Under the pieces are notes generated by a model that saw only the letters and a program-made list of their open reading frames with translations, searched no databases and was not told the origin of the DNA. A program made the position numbers and the translations under genes. Below, in pieces: positions 12,290-20,388 of a stretch of DNA of 64,000 nucleotides (position 1 is its first letter; each line of letters opens with the position of its first letter). The stretch is from a virus. The DNA is taken from positions 32,001 through 96,000 of the IMG/VR virus record IMGVR_UViG_3300044878_000031; one strand, 5' to 3'.

Positions 12290-12921
12290 ACGAAGACTCG
12301 CTAACACGCCCATGAGTAGGAATGCTAACGAGTCTTGTCCACACCACACCGAAAGCCGCTTAGGAGAACGACTGAATGAAGCACACGAAATGCTTCCCCA
12401 AGTGCATTCAGACAAGAGTGGCCACTAATGACCCGAATGAACTTGAGGCTGCATTTAGACGCTTAGACCGACCACTCGAAAGCGCACGGTCCGACTATCT
12501 ACAACTTGTGCCCTTCGCGGGGACACCTTACCTTTTGGCTAACCTAATTCTTGCGAGGACTTAGGTCGGCACCTTACTACCCCGTTGTTATAAGGTATAG
12601 GTACAACAGGGCCTGGCCCTAACACGGGCGAGGATACACACAGGCGACAAGCCGCGCTCGCAGCGGCCGCCTTATCGTGTCAAGCTACCCTCTCTCTTAG
12701 AGTCGTCTACACTTACTGGTTGACCTTGAAGGGGACCTGATTTGGGGTTCTGTCCTAAAAGTAGTAACAGTTCCTACGACGAACAGGGGATTAGCCTGTG
12801 AGGGTACAACATGGGGTGAGCGGGAAAGCCGAAACCTTCCAGACAGTTAATGTCCGACGGGGAGGGACCTGTCCAAGAGCTGGGTAGATAAAGTCCAGCT
12901 CAAGACTTGCGATACGCTCAC
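12290..12921. ncRNA. Candidate large structured non-coding RNA(s)
   Basis: ~630 nt with no credible ORF; more than 12 hairpins and a multibranch domain closed by GTGAGCG/CGCTCAC. Confidence 0.5.
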
Positions 12922-12928
12922 TTCTGGT

Positions 12929-13381
12929 TTAACGGCCGCACCAAGATTGCTTGGTACCACCGTCGTACGCAACTGCTAGACCATTCTTGATCAACAGTTC
13001 CGCGATGTCAATGTCGTCCACCATTACCTTGGAGACGATGCGGAAGTACTTGTCGCGTTCAGGTTCAACCAGAGTGATCTGGGTGGCTGAGTCGATGTAC
13101 TTCTTCAGGAGTAGCCGGGCTTGACGTGCTTTGGCTTTCTCAGCTTCTTGGTCAGCGACTGCTTTACAAGTGCTGCGCATCTCGGGAGTATCAATCCCAG
13201 CCAGACGAATACCGATGTTCTTTCCGAAGAGGTCAGGAACCTCAGGGATGTTTACATAGATAGTGTCGCCGTCGTAAACCCGCACAACCTGTTTAGGTTT
13301 CAGGTTAAAGCCACCGAAGGCAAAGACGCTGAACGAAGCCAACATCAATACCAGTGTTGCAGCAATGTTTCTAACGTTCAT
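12929..13381 (-). CDS. Thermonuclease (staphylococcal nuclease family) with a signal peptide
   Basis: VYDGDT, IRLAGIDTPE and DKYFR motifs; hydrophobic N-terminus ending in VFA; start ATG 13381 with GGAG RBS (the longer ORF call runs into tRNA-Leu). Confidence 0.9.
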   Translation of the reverse strand: MNVRNIAATLVLMLASFSVFAFGGFNLKPKQVVRVYDGDTIYVNIPEVPDLFGKNIGIRLAGIDTPEMRSTCKAVADQEAEKAKARQARLLLKKYIDSATQITLVEPERDKYFRIVSKVMVDDIDIAELLIKNGLAVAYDGGTKQSWCGR

Positions 13382-13428
13382 ACGTAACTCCAAGTGATAT
13401 AGAACATAGTATCGCTTGGGGCGATGTA

Positions 13429-13515
13429 TGGTACCCGAAGCCGGGGTCGAACCGGCACGGCCTTTCAGCCATCGCATTTTAAGTGCGGTGCGTCTACCGA
13501 TTTCACCATTCGGGC
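13429..13515 (-). tRNA. tRNA-Leu(UAA)
   Basis: Cloverleaf GCCCGAA/TTCGGGT, loop CTTAAAA, long variable arm, encoded CCA. Confidence 0.95.
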
Positions 13516-13601
13516 AAAAGGGTGCCTTCTCTCACGTCGGGACAGGGTTCTTTGTTTCCGGCGCAGATCCATCACTCATTGAGAGAGAAGACATAACAAC
13601 G

Positions 13602-13695
13602 TTGGGGGATCGACACGATAGGATTCGAACCTATGGACCGTAGCCAGCGCTTAGCGCTTGCCTTAAACCACTCAGCCACGCGTCGAAACCCCCAA
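13602..13695 (-). ncRNA. tRNA-like RNA with collapsed anticodon arm and extended acceptor stem
   Basis: Intact D arm and T arm (ATAGG-TTCGAAT-CCTAT); anticodon arm AGCGC-TAA-GCGCT; no CCA at the canonical position; outer TTGGGGG/CCCCCAA stem. Confidence 0.75.
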
Positions 13696-13816
13696 ACTCT
13701 GTGTACCACATTAGTCCTCCTAGTTCTGATTACCCTGCGCGTCAGGTCGGTCGTAACTAGGATGGGCGTGTACCGACGCCCCGTTTTACTTCTGTTCCCT
13801 AAGGAACCTTCTAATG

Positions 13817-13898
13817 TGCGGCCCTCGGCAAGATTCGAACTTGCGACCTTCACCGGACCGAAGTCCGACAACGTTCTAACCGACTGAACTACGAGGGC
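13817..13898 (-). ncRNA. tRNA-like RNA with a UUCG tetraloop in place of the anticodon loop
   Basis: Perfect acceptor GCCCTCG/CGAGGGC, canonical D and T arms; central arm TTGTCGGAC-TTCG-GTCCGGTGA; ends CGCA. Confidence 0.8.
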
Positions 13899-13906
13899 AT
13901 TACAAA

Positions 13907-13992
13907 TGGCGGAAGGATAGAGATTCGAACTCTAGGACCTGTTACAGTCGACGGTTTTCAAGACCGCTGCAATACCGCTATGCGACCCTTCC
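13907..13992 (-). tRNA. tRNA-Ser(UGA)
   Basis: Cloverleaf, loop CTTGAAA, long variable arm, GCCA end. Confidence 0.95.
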
Positions 13993-14254
13993 GAAATCGA
14001 GCCGGGGCTTTCCCCGGAGTCACCACATAGCCAAGGCGGCGGCTATGAACCAATGGGAAACCCTGAGCAAGAGCCGATGGTACTCGGAGTCAGCAAGCTC
14101 ACCTCTATGGGGTACGAGATCTACGTGTATCGCTGTGTGAGCAACGATCCACTCCTTCGCAGGGGCAGGACACCAGGCAGGGCAGGCGCTTAGTGTTGGG
14201 CGGACCGTCTCGTTTATACTCGAGTACAGAAGCGCCTGAGGCGCGGTCCATAAA

Positions 14255-14342
14255 TGGCAGTAGATAAGAGATTCGAACTCTTGTGGCTGTTACACCAACA
14301 CGCTTTCCAGGCGTGCCCCTTAAGCCGCTCGGGCAATCTACT
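14255..14342 (-). tRNA. tRNA-Ser(GGA)
   Basis: Cloverleaf, loop CTGGAAA, long variable arm, GCCA end. Confidence 0.95.
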
Positions 14343-14349
14343 GTAGTGC

Positions 14350-14501
14350 TTCGATCATTACCCGGTGTGCGGTATATCGTATCCGCTCAGGCGTCCCAGC
14401 TAGGATTTCGGGTTGTACCTAGAATGCCGCCTTGGACGGGCGGAGTTATACCTTTCGGCGTTTTTAACTATTGGGACTCTTTTACCGCACCACTGATCGA
14501 A
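14350..14501 (-). ncRNA. Candidate structured RNA in a tRNA spacer
   Basis: Nested stems TTCGATCA/TGATCGAA, GTGCGGTA/TACCGCAC and GTCCCA/TGGGAC enclosing three hairpins, one with a GAAA tetraloop. Confidence 0.6.
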
Positions 14502-14572
14502 TTGCTTTATCGGGAATCGAACCCGAGTGAGCCGCCTGTGTGGCAGCCGTTCTACCATTGAACTATAAAGCG
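14502..14572 (-). tRNA. Atypical tRNA (nominal anticodon CAC, Val) or tRNA-like RNA
   Basis: Good D and T arms; anticodon loop CACACAG lacks U33; C1:A72 mismatch; no encoded CCA. Confidence 0.65.
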
Positions 14573-14576
14573 TGCT

Positions 14577-14651
14577 TGGCTCCGAGACCTGGACTCGAAC
14601 CAGGGACCAAACGGTTAACAGCCGTTTGCTCTACCACTGAGCTATCCCGGA
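14577..14651 (-). tRNA. tRNA-Asn(GUU)
   Basis: Cloverleaf, loop CTGTTAA, GCCA end. Confidence 0.95.
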
Positions 14652-14659
14652 ATGAAACT

Positions 14660-14842
14660 TTAGGCCGACTTCAGAACTTCAGTGACCTTGATCTCGCGAT
14701 CGTCGTAGACAACGCGCTGAGCTTGTTCACCGTCTTGCAGGATGAACTTCTCGTACACTTCGCCAGTAACGCGATTCACGATAACCACTTCGACTTCTTT
14801 ATCGGAAGCGCAGTGGGCTTGAGTAATAACTGTAGTAGTCAT
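14660..14842 (-). CDS. Small hypothetical protein (60 aa, beta-rich)
   Basis: AAGGAG RBS, highly expressed-type codon usage, directly downstream of the Tad2-like gene. Confidence 0.8.
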   Translation of the reverse strand: MTTTVITQAHCASDKEVEVVIVNRVTGEVYEKFILQDGEQAQRVVYDDREIKVTEVLKSA

Positions 14843-14851
14843 GACGACTCC

Positions 14852-15490
14852 TTAAACAGGGCGACGGTTGTAGTTGACGCGCTTAACTTCAAGCTCGACG
14901 AACAGCGCAATCGGATACCCTTCAGGCAGTTGTACAGCAACCTTGGAGTTTGTGGTCTCTTGGTTAACCGTAATGCTGAATGGAATTTTAACGACGCTAC
15001 CGAGAGTGCCGTTGAGGTGAATGTCTCGACCGATCTTTACAGACCGTGAGAAAGTCGCTGCAACTTCAACATCGTCTTTGGTAACGATGCGGAGAACCTT
15101 GACTGAGTCAATGCTGTCCGTGATGTCCACAGCAACGCCACTGGCTCCTACCAGACCGAACAGGCTCTTGGCATCACCGTCTTTCAACGGGAGGCGTACA
15201 TTGGAGACGTCAGTGTTGATGGAAGGTTCCGTCAGGATCTCCCAGTCTTTACCCAGTTGATCCGATTGAGCCGGATGCCACGGGGTGAAAACGTTCTGAG
15301 CTGTCTTCATGCCAACCCACGGTGCCAGTGTTGGACACTCGTTCTCACCAGGCTTGTAGCCCAGGGTTGCACAACCTACATCGTAATTACCCGGAGTGAC
15401 TAACACCAACCACATGTCTTTGCCATTCCAACTTGGGCGAGTAACACGCTTGCCTTCATGCAATGCCGCAATTGCTGCACCGAAGTCCAT
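14852..15490 (-). CDS. DUF2829 / Tad2-like anti-Thoeris sponge domain fused to an extra C-terminal domain
   Basis: MDFGAAIAALHEGKRVTRPSWNGKDMWL ... PWHPAQSDQLGKDWEI matches the DUF2829 pattern; start ATG 15490 with AAGGA RBS. Confidence 0.82.
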   Translation of the reverse strand: MDFGAAIAALHEGKRVTRPSWNGKDMWLVLVTPGNYDVGCATLGYKPGENECPTLAPWVGMKTAQNVFTPWHPAQSDQLGKDWEILTEPSINTDVSNVRLPLKDGDAKSLFGLVGASGVAVDITDSIDSVKVLRIVTKDDVEVAATFSRSVKIGRDIHLNGTLGSVVKIPFSITVNQETTNSKVAVQLPEGYPIALFVELEVKRVNYNRRPV

Positions 15491-15500
15491 GGGTAATTCC

Positions 15501-15662
15501 TTAACAAACGAGGATAGGGACTGGAATGCCTTTCTCGGCACAGACGCGCTTTAAAGCTTCGTCTGCATCTTTCCAGCGCTGTAGTCGGGCGAGGCTTTGC
15601 TCACGAGACTGCGGAGTAATCTTGGAACGATCCAGATCACGTAAGCGAAAGACCGGAACCAT
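15501..15662 (-). CDS. Small hypothetical protein (53 aa, MVPVFRLRDLDRSK...)
   Basis: AGGAGG RBS; fills the gap between tRNA-Ser and the Tad2-like gene; below the ORF-track size cutoff. Confidence 0.65.
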   Translation of the reverse strand: MVPVFRLRDLDRSKITPQSREQSLARLQRWKDADEALKRVCAEKGIPVPILVC

Positions 15663-15678
15663 GAGGCCTCCTAAAACG

Positions 15679-15766
15679 TGGCGGCGGGTGAAGGATTTGA
15701 ACCCTCGGGGCTGTTACACCCTCTCCCTTAGCAAGGGAGCGCATTAAACCACTCTGCCAACCCACC
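15679..15766 (-). tRNA. tRNA-Ser(GCU)
   Basis: Cloverleaf, loop TTGCTAA, long variable arm, GCCA end. Confidence 0.95.
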
Positions 15767-15773
15767 GTGAAAA

Positions 15774-15850
15774 TGGCGCCTCCGAACGGACTTGAACCGT
15801 CGACCCCTAGCGTGACAGGCTAGTGCTCTAACCAACTGAGCTACGGAAGC
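15774..15850 (-). tRNA. tRNA-Asp(GUC)
   Basis: Cloverleaf, loop CTGTCAC, GCCA end. Confidence 0.95.
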
Positions 15851-16044
15851 GTAAACGTCCTGAGGAATATGGACTCTGCAATCACCCAGACTGTGCCTGT
15901 AGGTGCATCGCGTGTAGGCTCAAGGTTCGTGTAGACTACCATGGGCCAAGAACAGTCCTGAGCATGACGAGCAAGGCTTAGCACTTTAAAGCGCAGCCCG
16001 CTAGGAGATAGATACTCTCCTTTCTCTTCAATAGTCTCAAGCAT
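15841..16044 (-). CDS. DUF1653-like small protein
   Basis: G-x-x-F-x-V-x-x-x-A-x-H ... VVY-x-x-L ... W ... F pattern; start ATG 16044 with GAGGA RBS; stop codon lies inside the tRNA-Asp 5' end. Confidence 0.65.
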   Translation of the reverse strand: MLETIEEKGEYLSPSGLRFKVLSLARHAQDCSWPMVVYTNLEPTRDAPTGTVWVIAESIFLRTFTLP

Positions 16045-16298
16045 GTTCGTTCCTCGAATTTGTTGCCTACTTGCTTCCCGTTTGAAGCGGGTTGCTAAAC
16101 TCATGTGTAACCAGACGCCCCGCAGGTCATGGGCTTTATCTATCTAGCCAAGCCGCCCCCGAGGGCACCGAGTTAGATCCACTGGATTACGAGTTAGGTG
16201 ATCCTCTCAGCGTTTGTCACGCCAAGTTAAACATGAAGACCGGGAACGGCTATCCGCGAATTCGCAAGCCAATAGTTCTTCAACGTAAGGATCGTAAA

Positions 16299-16384
16299 TG
16301 GTGGGTGAGGTAGGATTCGAACCTACGAAGCCATCGGCGTCAGATTTACAATCTGATAACTTTGAACCACTTGTATACTCACCC
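16299..16384 (-). tRNA. tRNA-Tyr(GUA)
   Basis: Cloverleaf, loop TTGTAAA, long variable arm, ACCA end. Confidence 0.93.
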
Positions 16385-16389
16385 GGTAA

Positions 16390-16473
16390 AGCTGACAATG
16401 TTAGGCATCGAAGCCCTGCTAGTTCCCGGACCGCACTAGCTTTCCATTAACGACGGCTGACGCGTTGTCAGCT
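16390..16473 (-). ncRNA. Cloverleaf-like RNA with a T-loop-like hairpin
   Basis: AGCTGACAA/TTGTCAGCT closing stem enclosing three hairpins, the last GGC-TTCGAT-GCC. Confidence 0.55.
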
Positions 16474-16516
16474 ATGGCCCTCGCTAATGACTCCCCAGGA
16501 GTGCACTGCCACAAAA

Positions 16517-16655
16517 TGGTCCTCCGCTGTCGGATCTACCGACGCGACCGCTTCAACTGACCCCCGGCGTACGGGACGTTTAGGTTACACTAGAACAACA
16601 TTCCCACGCAGTAGCGTTCACAATGCGCACTCTAATGGCCTTGGTCTACAGAGGA
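16517..16655 (-). ncRNA. CCA-terminated, acceptor-stem-containing RNA (~140 nt)
   Basis: CCTCTGT/GCGGAGG stem plus ACCA end, preceded by a GTCGG-TAGAT-CCGAC hairpin in the T-arm position. Confidence 0.55.
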
Positions 16656-16669
16656 TGAAACTATGAATT

Positions 16670-16799
16670 TGGCCCCGAGGGGTGGACTCGAACCACCGAC
16701 CTCCCGCTGGCAAGCGTGTTTAAACGTTCTCGCCACGTTAGTAGCTATCAACGTAACCGCATGTCTAACGAGTGTTCTAACCGACTGAACTACCCAAGG
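16670..16799 (-). ncRNA. tRNA-like RNA with a ~53-nt insertion in the anticodon loop
   Basis: Canonical D arm, T arm (GGTGG-TTCGAGT-CCACC) and GCCA end; stem CTCGTT/AGCGGG closes a large structured insert. Confidence 0.78.
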
Positions 16800-16808
16800 G
16801 ATTGAAAG

Positions 16809-17029
16809 ACTAACCGCTACCCCGACCTACGGAATGCAATACTCACTGTGACCTCTGGAGGAAAAGAAAGAAAACCCCAGAGCAACTCGGTATGCAATCG
16901 AGCCATGTAACACATTGAGTCGGGTCACGCTACTCCAACCGCAGAACACCGGAAGTCCGTCAAGTCCCAGTAGATTCCCCTTTCGCCGTGAAGCTAGAGG
17001 TCGTGCTGGAATCCCTGCTATCGGTCAGT
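16809..17029 (-). ncRNA. Candidate structured leader RNA of the tRNA operon (~220 nt)
   Basis: Terminal stem ACTGACCG/CGGTTAGT (G-U on minus); internal stems GGATTCC/GGAATCT, CTCTGGGG/CTCCAGAG, ACTCA/TGAGT; no ORF. Confidence 0.5.
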
Positions 17030-17095
17030 AACGTGTAGGTCTCTCAATAGATCACTGGAGTATGTAAATTATTACGTAAACTCAGGCAAAAAAAA

Positions 17096-17114
17096 AGGCC
17101 CGGTGAAGGGCCCC
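17096..17114 (-). terminator. Intrinsic terminator
   Basis: GGGCCC/GGGCCT-type GC hairpin followed by a long U-tract on the minus strand. Confidence 0.75.
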
Positions 17115-19219: not shown

Positions 19220-19414
19220 TCAGCCCAACCCTACTCCTGAAGGGCGGTTCTCGACCATGTGTTTAGCAGGATCGTAAACCACCTTCTCGTAGCAGTTGTG
19301 CCAAGGCTTTCCTTGACAACACGTACAGTGGAACGGAGCAGCCGCTGGAGAGGTGAGTAACTCAATCACCCCGCACTTGTCACAGGCGTACTCCAACAGC
19401 GCTCCACCACTCAT
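19220..19414 (-). CDS. Small Cys-rich (Zn-ribbon) protein
   Basis: CxxC ... CxxC ... WH; start overlaps the phuZ stop codon. Confidence 0.75.
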   Translation of the reverse strand: MSGGALLEYACDKCGVIELLTSPAAAPFHCTCCQGKPWHNCYEKVVYDPAKHMVENRPSGVGLG

Positions 19415-20388
19415 TACAGCACCAGGCCGTCGTCGGTGACGGTGTCCTTGGCATCGTTGATCAACTTCTGGGCAGCAGCGCGGCCTTCGCTACGCTGTTC
19501 GAAGTCGTTGATGGTCGATTGTAGGCGATCGAAGGTAGCACCCAGGTGTTGGGTGGATACCACGAAGTGCAGCTCCTGGATGTCTTTCACCGGATGTAGG
19601 AAGTAGCCAGTGCAGGAGTATTCCGGCACGGGGGTTTCCAGATGCGGCTGATTACGATCGGCGTACAGCGAGGCGATCGAGATCGGGTCAGCAATTTCAG
19701 ACACGTCGCTGGCGCCAGCGAAGATGTCCAGCAGAACCAGTTGAGCTTCTACGCTGGTCGACTTGTTGATGTTCAGCCAGTTGTAGATGTCCTTGGTGTC
19801 CAGCTCGGCGTTCTGACGCGAGGCCAGGTAGCACAGGCAGGAGATTGCGAAGTCCAGTTGGTCGTCGACAATCTTGCGAGTAGCTTCGCCGCCGTTGTGA
19901 CGGTAGAACGCGACCAGCGGTTTGTCGATTTGCTTGGTGATAGCCGACAGGGACTTCACGGTGTTCAGGGTGTTGCGTGCAGTGATCGCAGCTTCGGACG
20001 AACCGGCGGAAACGATAACTACGGAGTGACCACGGTCAGCCAGCTCTTTTGCCAGCAGTGGGCCGATTACCGAACCCGAACCGCCCGACGCCGAGAAGAC
20101 GACGATGTTGAAATCTTCAGGAGCCTGCTTGAGCAGGATCTGTTTGATGACTGCGGAGATCTGCGCGTGGTTCTCTTTACGCACTTTACCGGAGCCGTCG
20201 GTTTTCTCGAGGATGAATACGTCTTCTTCCTTGACCGTGTCGGTCAGGTTGGAACGACTGGTGTCCACGAAGCTTGGGAGCAGATCCGCGAAGCCCGGTG
20301 CGGATTGACGATTCAGGTAACGCAGGGCAACGTTCACGCCCAGACCACCACAACCGTACAGACGCACTTTACCTTTACCTTGTTCCAT
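19414..20388 (-). CDS. phuZ: PhuZ phage tubulin
   Basis: GCGGLGVN, DTSRSN, GSGKVR, tubulin signature SGGSGS, NAELD, acidic C-terminal tail DDGLVL. Confidence 0.95.
   Translation of the reverse strand: MEQGKGKVRLYGCGGLGVNVALRYLNRQSAPGFADLLPSFVDTSRSNLTDTVKEEDVFILEKTDGSGKVRKENHAQISAVIKQILLKQAPEDFNIVVFSASGGSGSVIGPLLAKELADRGHSVVIVSAGSSEAAITARNTLNTVKSLSAITKQIDKPLVAFYRHNGGEATRKIVDDQLDFAISCLCYLASRQNAELDTKDIYNWLNINKSTSVEAQLVLLDIFAGASDVSEIADPISIASLYADRNQPHLETPVPEYSCTGYFLHPVKDIQELHFVVSTQHLGATFDRLQSTINDFEQRSEGRAAAQKLINDAKDTVTDDGLVL

Follow-up and report, generated by a model that had tools for sequence, protein, structure and literature searches.

A conserved island of structured RNAs, several of them on non-decoding tRNA frames, in the tRNA cluster of a phiKZ-like jumbo phage

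Introduction

The transfer RNA (tRNA) genes of phages are now understood chiefly in two ways, as a means of supplementing codons or as a source of substitutes for tRNAs that host defences have cut. What else a phage tRNA cluster may encode is the question raised by a 64,000-nucleotide (nt) stretch of viral DNA, hereafter the window, which comprises bases 32,001-96,000 of the 112-kilobase (kb) IMG/VR virus record IMGVR_UViG_3300044878_000031 (CheckV completeness 41%). Here, canonical tRNAs on the minus strand are interspersed with small open reading frames (ORFs) and with non-coding segments, several of which resemble tRNAs. An initial annotation, made from the sequence without database searches, read most of these segments as discrete RNA modules and proposed a co-transcribed set of non-decoding tRNA mimics placed next to an anti-defence gene.

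The RNA island, which occupies 12,675-17,075 on the minus strand, is real, conserved and largely undescribed, and its anatomy is well supported; the analysis shows the anatomy itself, the conservation and covariation of the parts, the exchange of modules and their absence from Rfam. The tRNA-derived RNAs of the island appear not to decode, and its conserved RNAs are probably functional. The evidence is set out below for the elements with tRNA frames and for the free-standing RNAs, followed by the layout of the island, the mechanism that it may serve and the explanations that compete with it.

Comparative set

The comparative set consists of eight syntenic relatives and the cultured Pseudomonas syringae phages D6 and Psa21. 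Protein-based searches led to a sole relative, L008, whose PhuZ-type tubulin is 67% identical to that of the window, and the Tad2-like protein encoded in the island, used as a query, returned only unrelated phages. The remaining relatives were found by DNA patterns taken from the modules designated X, Y and M2 below; these patterns recovered further IMG/VR records (L016, L015/L036, L033, L034 and L035), metagenome loci (L019-L024) and distant loci that carry module X (L010, L013/L023 and L014). One more locus, L011, was rejected as a chance pattern match within a coding region. Since the alignments are small (6-10 sequences) and their members phylogenetically related, the shuffle counts reported below are not probabilities and overstate significance.

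Against 50,697 isolate phage records, blastn (word size 11) with the whole island and with X, Y plus E, and M2 gave only tRNA matches and X in D6 and Psa21, and megablast against isolate phages gave tRNA fragments only. Searches with Rfam 15 of the window (at the gathering threshold, then at E up to 5) and of eight related loci produced tRNA matches only; no module matches any other family, in keeping with the view of the initial annotation that the set is a candidate for an undescribed system.

tRNA-like elements with sealed or exchanged anticodon arms

Whole or degenerate tRNA frames were recognized in five elements:

13602-13695, minus strand: element A, Rfam 39.7 bits (13610-13685), class-II Ser-like body with a long variable arm, no CCA
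13820-13898, minus strand: element B, Rfam 49.7 bits, canonical acceptor, D and T arms, no CCA
14502-14572, minus strand: element C, Rfam 48.4 bits, near-canonical cloverleaf, no CCA
16670-16799, minus strand: element D, Rfam 35.9 bits (16673-16799), acceptor, D and T arms, G73-CCA encoded
16517-16655, minus strand: element E, an approximately 90-nt two-hairpin domain (cargo 2) with an acceptor-like stem, a T-arm stub and A73-CCA

These were assessed with the Rfam tRNA model (RF00005, gathering score 29 bits) and with a frame parser that locates the acceptor, D and T arms. In a normal class I tRNA, the D and T stems are separated by 23 nt, which include U33. Elements A, B, C and D each exceed the Rfam threshold, and window E is not detected by Rfam. 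In A-D, the parser found that the acceptor, D and T arms are intact, with G18G19 and loops of the TΨC type, but that the D and T stems are separated by an abnormal stretch, which measures 25 nt in A, 28 nt in B, 22 nt in C and 76 nt in D. None of A-E has the anticodon arm of a decoding tRNA, i.e., a stem of 5 base pairs (bp) and a 7-nt loop with U33 and purine 37. Both the Rfam scores and the parser therefore uphold the four tRNA-like elements that had been described as having an altered anticodon arm beside well-kept D and T arms; the broader statement that the elbow is kept and the decoding arm changed holds for A-D and fails for E in the window, L016 and L034. An encoded CCA is present in D and E of most relatives. 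ARAGORN labels three of these elements Ala, Val and 'undetermined' and the copies in relatives Gly, Arg and Leu, which calls for caution in annotation, since the program assigns amino-acid identities to elements that have no normal anticodon loop.

The decoding arm of A is a 5-bp stem closed by a UAA triloop, and its acceptor stem is lengthened by an outer helix of 8-9 bp. Both are kept in L016, the triloop hairpin by two double changes (AGCGC/GCGCU versus GUCGC/GCGAC) and the outer helix by two more (GGGGG/CCCCC versus GAGAG/CUCUC). In B, the decoding arm is replaced by a 9-bp helix with a UUCG cap in the window and in L021, which leaves an 'emptied' scaffold, and B of L022 ends in a UUAGU loop on a 7-8 bp stem; in L008, L033, L035 and L036, B holds a domain termed cargo 1, the D and T stems then being 74-78 nt apart. 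A further sealed tRNA-like family, called 'Arg-tcg' by ARAGORN, lies at 15939-16014 of L008 and 2995-3070 of L033, between ORF53 and the Tad2-like homologues; it has a UUCG-capped, extended anticodon helix, resembles B of L022 and is lacking in the window. Other tRNA-like variants occur at 1179-1274 of L034 and in L036 and L016.

Element C is the weakest case for selection among the tRNA-like elements. Its 7-nt loop, CACACAG, has A33 in place of U33 and could close further to leave 7 bp and 5 nt, and positions 1 and 72 are mismatched. The orthologous loops read CGAACAA in L022 and CGCCCAA in L016; the stems show compensatory changes among the four orthologues, in all of which position 33 is A or G. 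No relative was found to have a normal tRNA in place of any tRNA-like element, the partial exception being C of L016, which is Gly(CCC)-like with U33 changed.

In D, a 59-nt domain lies between the strands of the anticodon stem and forms a long irregular hairpin; this is again cargo 1. B and D are paralogues that share cargo 1: frame D carries it in the window, L022, L016 and L034, frame B in L008, L033, L035 and L036. The alignment of D with the long form of B (8 sequences) folds as a cloverleaf with an extended anticodon arm, in which 25 of 38 pairs show compensatory change and 93% of the cells are paired, a result matched by none of 300 shuffles; when partners are slid, pairing falls to 36-46%.

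Cargo 2, the domain held by E, shows compensatory change in 11 of 30 pairs (7 sequences) and is found in four different frames, one of which, in L015, has the T arm and acceptor of frame D. The segment 16517-16655 had been described as cloverleaf-like or CCA-ended: it does encode CCA, and the orthologous segments of L008, L015, L022 and L035 preserve the entire tRNA frame, their D and T stems 104-107 nt apart, but the window copy is degenerate, having lost the D arm and T loop, as have the copies in L016 and L034, with cargo 2 retained. Because the same cargo occurs in different frames, and frames have been emptied or have degenerated with the cargo kept, frame and cargo are separable, the cargo being the more persistent of the two. 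The inserted domains are conserved between genomes whose PhuZ proteins are only 67% identical. Taken together, the evidence favours selection on the tRNA-like elements rather than decay, and the earlier argument that the changes are not random decay is supported by stems that hold through compensatory changes in relatives, where covariation is abundant.

Free-standing structured RNAs

The segments without a tRNA frame comprise the following:

13707-13818, minus strand: X, a 110-nt four-way-junction RNA with an invariant core (…GACCTGACGCGCAGGGTAATCAG), the best-supported structured RNA
16385-16516, minus strand: Y, a 132-nt multi-hairpin RNA, nearly invariant, immediately 5' of tRNA-Tyr
14343-14501, minus strand: M2, a multibranch structured RNA of about 155 nt
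16806-17050, minus strand: M4, a multibranch structured RNA of about 240 nt that heads the island
12675-12928, minus strand: a downstream structured RNA block
13516-13600, minus strand: M1, a conserved element with an invariant 11-bp closing stem and weak structural support
13993-14254, minus strand: M5, a conserved non-coding spacer with modest structural support
16105-16298, minus strand: M3, a spacer, probably the 5' untranslated region of the next ORF

Module X was missing from the modules listed in the initial annotation. Its distant copies were misaligned by MAFFT and were re-aligned with a covariance model (R1; 9 sequences, including D6 and Psa21), which gave compensatory change in 16 of 32 pairs, with 96.9% of the cells paired and 0 of 500 shuffles reaching this level; slid-partner controls gave 30-44% pairing. 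The corresponding figures are 13 of 40 pairs, 97.5% and 0 of 300 shuffles for Y (6 sequences) and 14 of 42 pairs, 97.6% and 0 of 300 shuffles for M2 (10 sequences). In M4 (6 sequences), which has no ORF and whose indels are not multiples of three, 19 of 73 pairs are compensatory (0 of 300 shuffles), and in the downstream block (8 sequences) the count is 21 of 73. A chance origin of the covariation is unlikely, in view of the low pairing with slid partners and of how many different pair types occur.

Several of the modules proposed initially can thus be redrawn. The multibranch RNAs placed at 14350-14501 and 16809-17029 are corroborated by covariation as M2 and M4, and the cloverleaf-like or CCA-ended module placed at 16390-16473 does lie within a structured RNA, of which it is only a part, namely the longer Y. 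Of the multibranch RNA at 13523-13593, the invariant closing stem of M1 stands and nothing beyond it, the 8 sequences yielding a single compensatory pair, a count that 35 of 300 shuffles reach. The multibranch RNA suggested at 16105-16222, within M3, found neither comparative nor thermodynamic support: 54 nt are conserved, in L016 only, and the folding z-score is -0.5. The general view of the spacers as discrete conserved RNA modules therefore stands for X, Y, M2 and M4, which covary, is weak for M1 and is not supported for M3. In M5, compensatory change was seen in 4 of 64 pairs (3 sequences), and the 3' two-thirds are 91-99% identical in the nearest relatives, L021, L020 and L022. The minimum free energy (MFE) of folding is significant only for A (z = -3.4), C (-4.4) and X (-3.8); MFE z-scores discriminate poorly here, and the main support comes from covariation in relatives.

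In every lineage examined, X is preceded by a tRNA-like element, and this pair is maintained in distant lineages, D6 and Psa21 among them, where blastn placed X behind a tRNA-like gene that in D6 carries the annotation 'tRNA-OTHER'. The D6 gene (L025, 4502-4582) has a 6-bp anticodon stem and a 14-nt loop; that of Psa21 (L026, 1400-1478) is unannotated, and its 8-bp anticodon stem ends in a loop of 7 nt, AUACCAC, that looks normal. In L013/L023 (IMGVR_UViG_3300023082_000015, 47 kb, rated complete), X has an upstream tRNA-like T arm and acceptor, and no tRNA near it is detectable by ARAGORN; the presence of X in this 47-kb genome means that the module is not restricted to jumbo phages.

Layout of the island and its genome

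The seven canonical minus-strand tRNAs counted in the initial annotation were recovered by both ARAGORN and Rfam, and all seven have an encoded CCA:

13429-13515, minus strand: tRNA-Leu (UAA)
13907-13992, minus strand: tRNA-Ser (UGA)
14255-14342, minus strand: tRNA-Ser (GGA)
14577-14651, minus strand: tRNA-Asn (GUU)
15679-15766, minus strand: tRNA-Ser (GCU)
15774-15850, minus strand: tRNA-Asp (GUC)
16299-16384, minus strand: tRNA-Tyr (GUA)

The remaining features of the island and its borders are:

17095-17114: intrinsic terminator that closes the upstream gene
17061-17075, minus strand: AT-rich box GTAATAATTTACATA, just downstream of the terminator and conserved in the first M4 alignment (4 relatives)
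15841-16041, minus strand: 66-amino-acid ORF, phrog_9138, with its stop codon within the acceptor strand of tRNA-Asp
15501-15662 and 14660-14842, minus strand: small ORFs on either side of the Tad2-like ORF
14852-15490, minus strand: Tad2-like ORF with an N-terminal PF11195 domain (Pfam E = 1.1e-21)
12929-13381, minus strand: SNase-like ORF (PF00565, phrog_452) with an apparent N-terminal signal peptide

All elements of the island lie on the same strand, and neighbouring modules are only a few nt apart (3-4 nt from B to X); between the tRNAs are small ORFs with good ribosome-binding sites. The AT-rich box is the probable promoter of the RNA island. With one strand, spacers of a few nt, a terminator upstream and the AT-rich box behind it, the layout fits a single processed, tRNA-punctuated polycistronic transcript. 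The initial annotation placed an anti-defence gene next to the RNAs, and a Tad2-like ORF does lie inside the cluster.

The phrog_9138 ORF, which we take to resemble DUF1653, ends in …F-T/S-L-P-stop, and its final three codons, CTT CCG TAG, lie in the 5' acceptor strand of tRNA-Asp, an overlap retained in five phages (the window, L033, L034, L035 and L016). As the ORF stops inside tRNA-Asp, an RNase P cut at this tRNA would strip the stop codon from the messenger RNA (mRNA). The SNase-like ORF is an optional cassette between tRNA-Leu and the downstream RNA block, being present in the window, L021, L008, L033 and L036 and absent from L022, L016, L020 and L024. In relatives without this ORF, the block directly follows tRNA-Leu, so the RNA island is longer than the region first delimited and reaches downstream to at least 12,675. 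Beyond the cluster, an ORF-free stretch that probably extends to about 12150 is 70-94% conserved in relatives, its first 250 nt or so being the structured block.

A module-by-locus table shows a mosaic distribution among the relatives. Element A is absent from L021, though this locus is 91-94% identical to the window; C and tRNA-Leu are absent from L008, and B and X from L016.

A PhuZ-type tubulin (Pfam TubZ_C_2 and Tubulin) is encoded at 19,414-20,388, and its best isolate matches are in jumbo phages of Xanthomonas, Klebsiella, Erwinia and Pseudomonas. On account of this protein and of these matches, the genome is that of a phiKZ-like jumbo phage, probably nucleus-forming and without a close cultured relative. 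In Xanthomonas phage LucasX, whose PhuZ is the nearest among the isolates, no tRNA cluster adjoins phuZ.

Proposed mechanism and rival explanations

For the island as a whole, we lean slightly towards a scaffold-plus-cargo model, in which a co-transcribed array is cut at its tRNAs and yields stable, non-decoding RNAs built on a natural tRNA scaffold; here, co-transcription, processing, stability and any target are what we infer. The tRNA-derived RNAs, the free-standing RNAs, the true tRNAs and the few small ORFs, one of them Tad2-like, would form a head-to-tail polycistronic island whose single transcript would begin near 17,075. RNase P would cleave 5' of every tRNA or tRNA-like body, and the 3' ends would be trimmed by RNase Z or RNase E together with exonucleases, the products being a set of stable small RNAs and short mRNAs. 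The tRNA-derived members appear to retain the features read by host tRNA maturation, namely the acceptor/T-arm helix, the D/T elbow and, in D and E, the CCA, whose retention suggests that these two mature with tRNA-like 3' ends. Their anticodon loop is either sealed into a small stable loop (A, B and partly C) or exchanged for cargo (D and E). The tRNA body would serve as a processing handle and stabilising scaffold, like the engineered tRNA scaffold considered below, and the work would be done by the cargo or the sealed hairpin and by the free-standing RNAs X, Y, M2 and M4, most likely through binding to a host or phage protein or RNA.

Several observations weigh against this model. By MFE, B, D, E and M2 do not fold better than shuffled sequences (z = -0.2 to -1.3), and A, B and C have no encoded CCA. 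The leader-trailer helix of A should hinder RNase P, so that A may be processed differently from the other elements or not at all. In L016, the loop of C differs from that of tRNA-Gly(CCC) by U33 alone, and C may be a decaying tRNA or an unusual decoding one. The small size (6-10 sequences) and kinship of the sets inflate the significance given by the shuffle controls, although the slid-partner controls are nevertheless low. Finally, Pfam and PHROGs searches of ten neighbouring ORFs found nothing tRNA-related, and the analysis yielded no partner protein or target.

Were the elements merely decaying tRNA pseudogenes and recombination scars of a fast-evolving cluster, the gain and loss of modules among relatives, the missing D arm and T loop of E in three loci and the single difference, at position 33, between C of L016 and a Gly(CCC) anticodon loop would all be accounted for. 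This explanation is disfavoured as highly unlikely, since the stems of frames and inserts are maintained by compensatory changes, the inserted domains have stayed conserved in spite of the divergence of PhuZ, and the loops have been exchanged for stable tetraloops or triloops rather than eroded. Phage tRNAs with anticodon-loop changes that evade nucleases have been reported, and some members, mainly C, might likewise be decoding tRNAs whose purine-33 loop escapes host anticodon nucleases; in C, the distance from D stem to T stem is canonical (22-23 nt), the anticodon stem has 5 bp and the loop 7 nt, positions 36-37 are C-A, and Rfam gives 48.4 bits. Such a role is nonetheless very improbable, as none of the four orthologues has U33, each having A or G there, the 'anticodon' reads CAC, AAC or CCC among close relatives without matching identity changes, one end of the acceptor stem is mismatched, and the CCA that all true tRNAs here encode is lacking. 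It is more improbable still, to the point of being barely credible, that the inserts are introns and the elements mature to normal tRNAs: the inserts do occupy the anticodon-loop position, but excision of any of them leaves no 7-nt loop with U33 and R37, B of the window and L021 has a UUCG tetraloop instead of an insert, and inserts of 55-90 nt match no Rfam intron family and are shorter than group I introns. No RtcB, TROVE or CCA-adding enzyme was found in the 112-kb record, which is 41% complete.

Two further explanations concern function. The tRNA-like bodies might be processing signals only, like the t-elements of plant mitochondria, serving to cut the polycistronic transcript so that adjacent mRNAs and RNAs are freed, with no function after cleavage. 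This would suit the position of B 3-4 nt upstream of X in every lineage examined, the flanking of ORFs by tRNAs, with one ORF ending inside tRNA-Asp, and the existence of 'empty' scaffolds (B of the window and of L022, 'Arg-tcg' of L008 and L033), but a bare cleavage signal needs neither cargo 1 nor cargo 2, each of which covaries on its own; cargo 2 outlasts a degenerate tRNA frame, and CCA is kept in D and E, so that the explanation is quite unlikely. Somewhat less unlikely, though still doubtful, is an anti-defence role, a narrowed form of the proposal in the initial annotation, which would add a function to the scaffold-plus-cargo model rather than replace it. Host factors that bind to the body or the 3' end of tRNAs would be inhibited by the RNAs or drawn to them as decoys. 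The candidates might be acceptor-end toxins (CapRel-type toxSAS, MenT) or other tRNA-binding immune proteins, with the cargo and free modules as RNA sponges. The island includes the Tad2-like ORF, near-identical genomes differ by whole modules, a rapid turnover typical of counter-defence loci, and anticodon loops have been sealed in three independent families, which would resist anticodon nucleases. The most conserved module, Y, adjoins tRNA-Tyr, a known target of several defence nucleases (PMC13096335). Conversely, PF11195 is widespread in phages, which makes its presence circumstantial, and an RNA that lacks the anticodon loop would serve poorly as a decoy for an anticodon nuclease and cannot replace a cleaved tRNA. 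The decoy role against anticodon nucleases, synthetases or RelA suggested in the initial annotation is hard to reconcile with the anatomy, since such loopless RNAs are unlikely to be cut by anticodon nucleases or to distract them, and the comparative data favour scaffold plus cargo instead; if the role is anti-defence, the likelier targets are factors binding the acceptor end or the elbow. A bolder version, which we consider unlikely, is that jumbo phages of this clade, the cultivable Pseudomonas syringae phages among them, display swappable cargo on tRNA frames, which host tRNA-processing enzymes would mature, as trans-acting RNA inhibitors or sponges against host immunity or translation factors, a counter-defence arsenal beside the Tad2-like protein sponge.

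Whatever its role, the island indicates that a giant-phage lineage also keeps under selection a set of non-decoding tRNA-derived and tRNA-linked structured RNAs. Should these be processed and stable, they would amount to six or more RNA families not described before (cargo 1, cargo 2, X, Y, M2 and M4) and a tractable system, since D6 and Psa21 can be cultivated and carry the B-plus-X pair.

Comparison with known systems

A literature search retrieved no description of tRNA frames with exchangeable cargo in phage tRNA arrays; a large IMG/VR screen mentions unspecified tRNA-like candidates (PMC10690425). Three known types of RNA were compared and rejected as identities. Transfer-messenger RNA (tmRNA) shares with the island elements a tRNA-like acceptor/T domain with CCA and a large insertion at the position of the anticodon arm. 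ARAGORN finds no tmRNA here, the inserts of 55-90 nt have no tag ORF or pseudoknots, and position 3:70 is U·G, C-G or G·G rather than the G3·U70 of tmRNA. Group I intron-bearing tRNA genes are equally set aside, given the lack of an intron-family match, the insert size and a canonical loop that cannot be restored. YrlA and other Y RNAs, which occur in some phages, combine a D/T elbow and an acceptor-like stem without an anticodon; YrlA has a permuted topology and ends in a Ro-binding stem, whereas the tRNA-like elements of the island end at the acceptor stem. The match to RF02553 scores 21.7 bits against a threshold of 69, and Rsr/TROVE (PF05731) is absent from the record of the window, the incomplete records of four relatives giving one 25-bit match (L016) with three stop codons.

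ROOL and GOLLD are structured RNAs without a known function that occur at or around phage tRNA islands (10.1101/2024.12.08.627333). The island has no Rfam match to them, and its modules are small (110-250 nt), numerous and partly tRNA-derived. A closer parallel in setting is the tRNA cluster of phage T4, which gives two stable non-tRNA RNAs (species 1 and 2; rnaC/rnaD) that share the transcript of the tRNAs and are freed by the enzymes of tRNA processing; we know of no function for them. As in T4, the island of a large lytic phage would hold stable non-tRNA RNAs among its tRNA genes, the stability being presumed here. It differs in having many more modules, several of them overt tRNA bodies with replaced anticodon arms, and shows no sequence similarity to the T4 RNAs (blastn, at the sequence level only).

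The use of a tRNA-like body as an RNase P/Z processing handle is known from the viral tRNA/precursor-microRNA units of murine gammaherpesvirus 68 (MHV68) and from MALAT1 mascRNA. In these, a non-decoding tRNA-like body with an altered anticodon arm frees an adjacent functional RNA, which may be compared with B followed by X, but their hosts are eukaryotic, with RNA polymerase III transcription or nuclear processing, and they have no homology to the island. The nearest architectural likeness is a laboratory construct, the engineered tRNA scaffold for recombinant RNA reportedly devised by Ponchon and Dardel. Here, too, a folded RNA replaces the anticodon stem-loop, and the tRNA body gives processing and nuclease resistance; such scaffolds stabilise recombinant RNAs in E. 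coli (PMC3753655). The laboratory scaffold is man-made, whereas the version in the island is natural and conserved, with cargo exchanged between frames in evolution, and, if its RNAs are processed and stable, it would be the first natural counterpart of that device.

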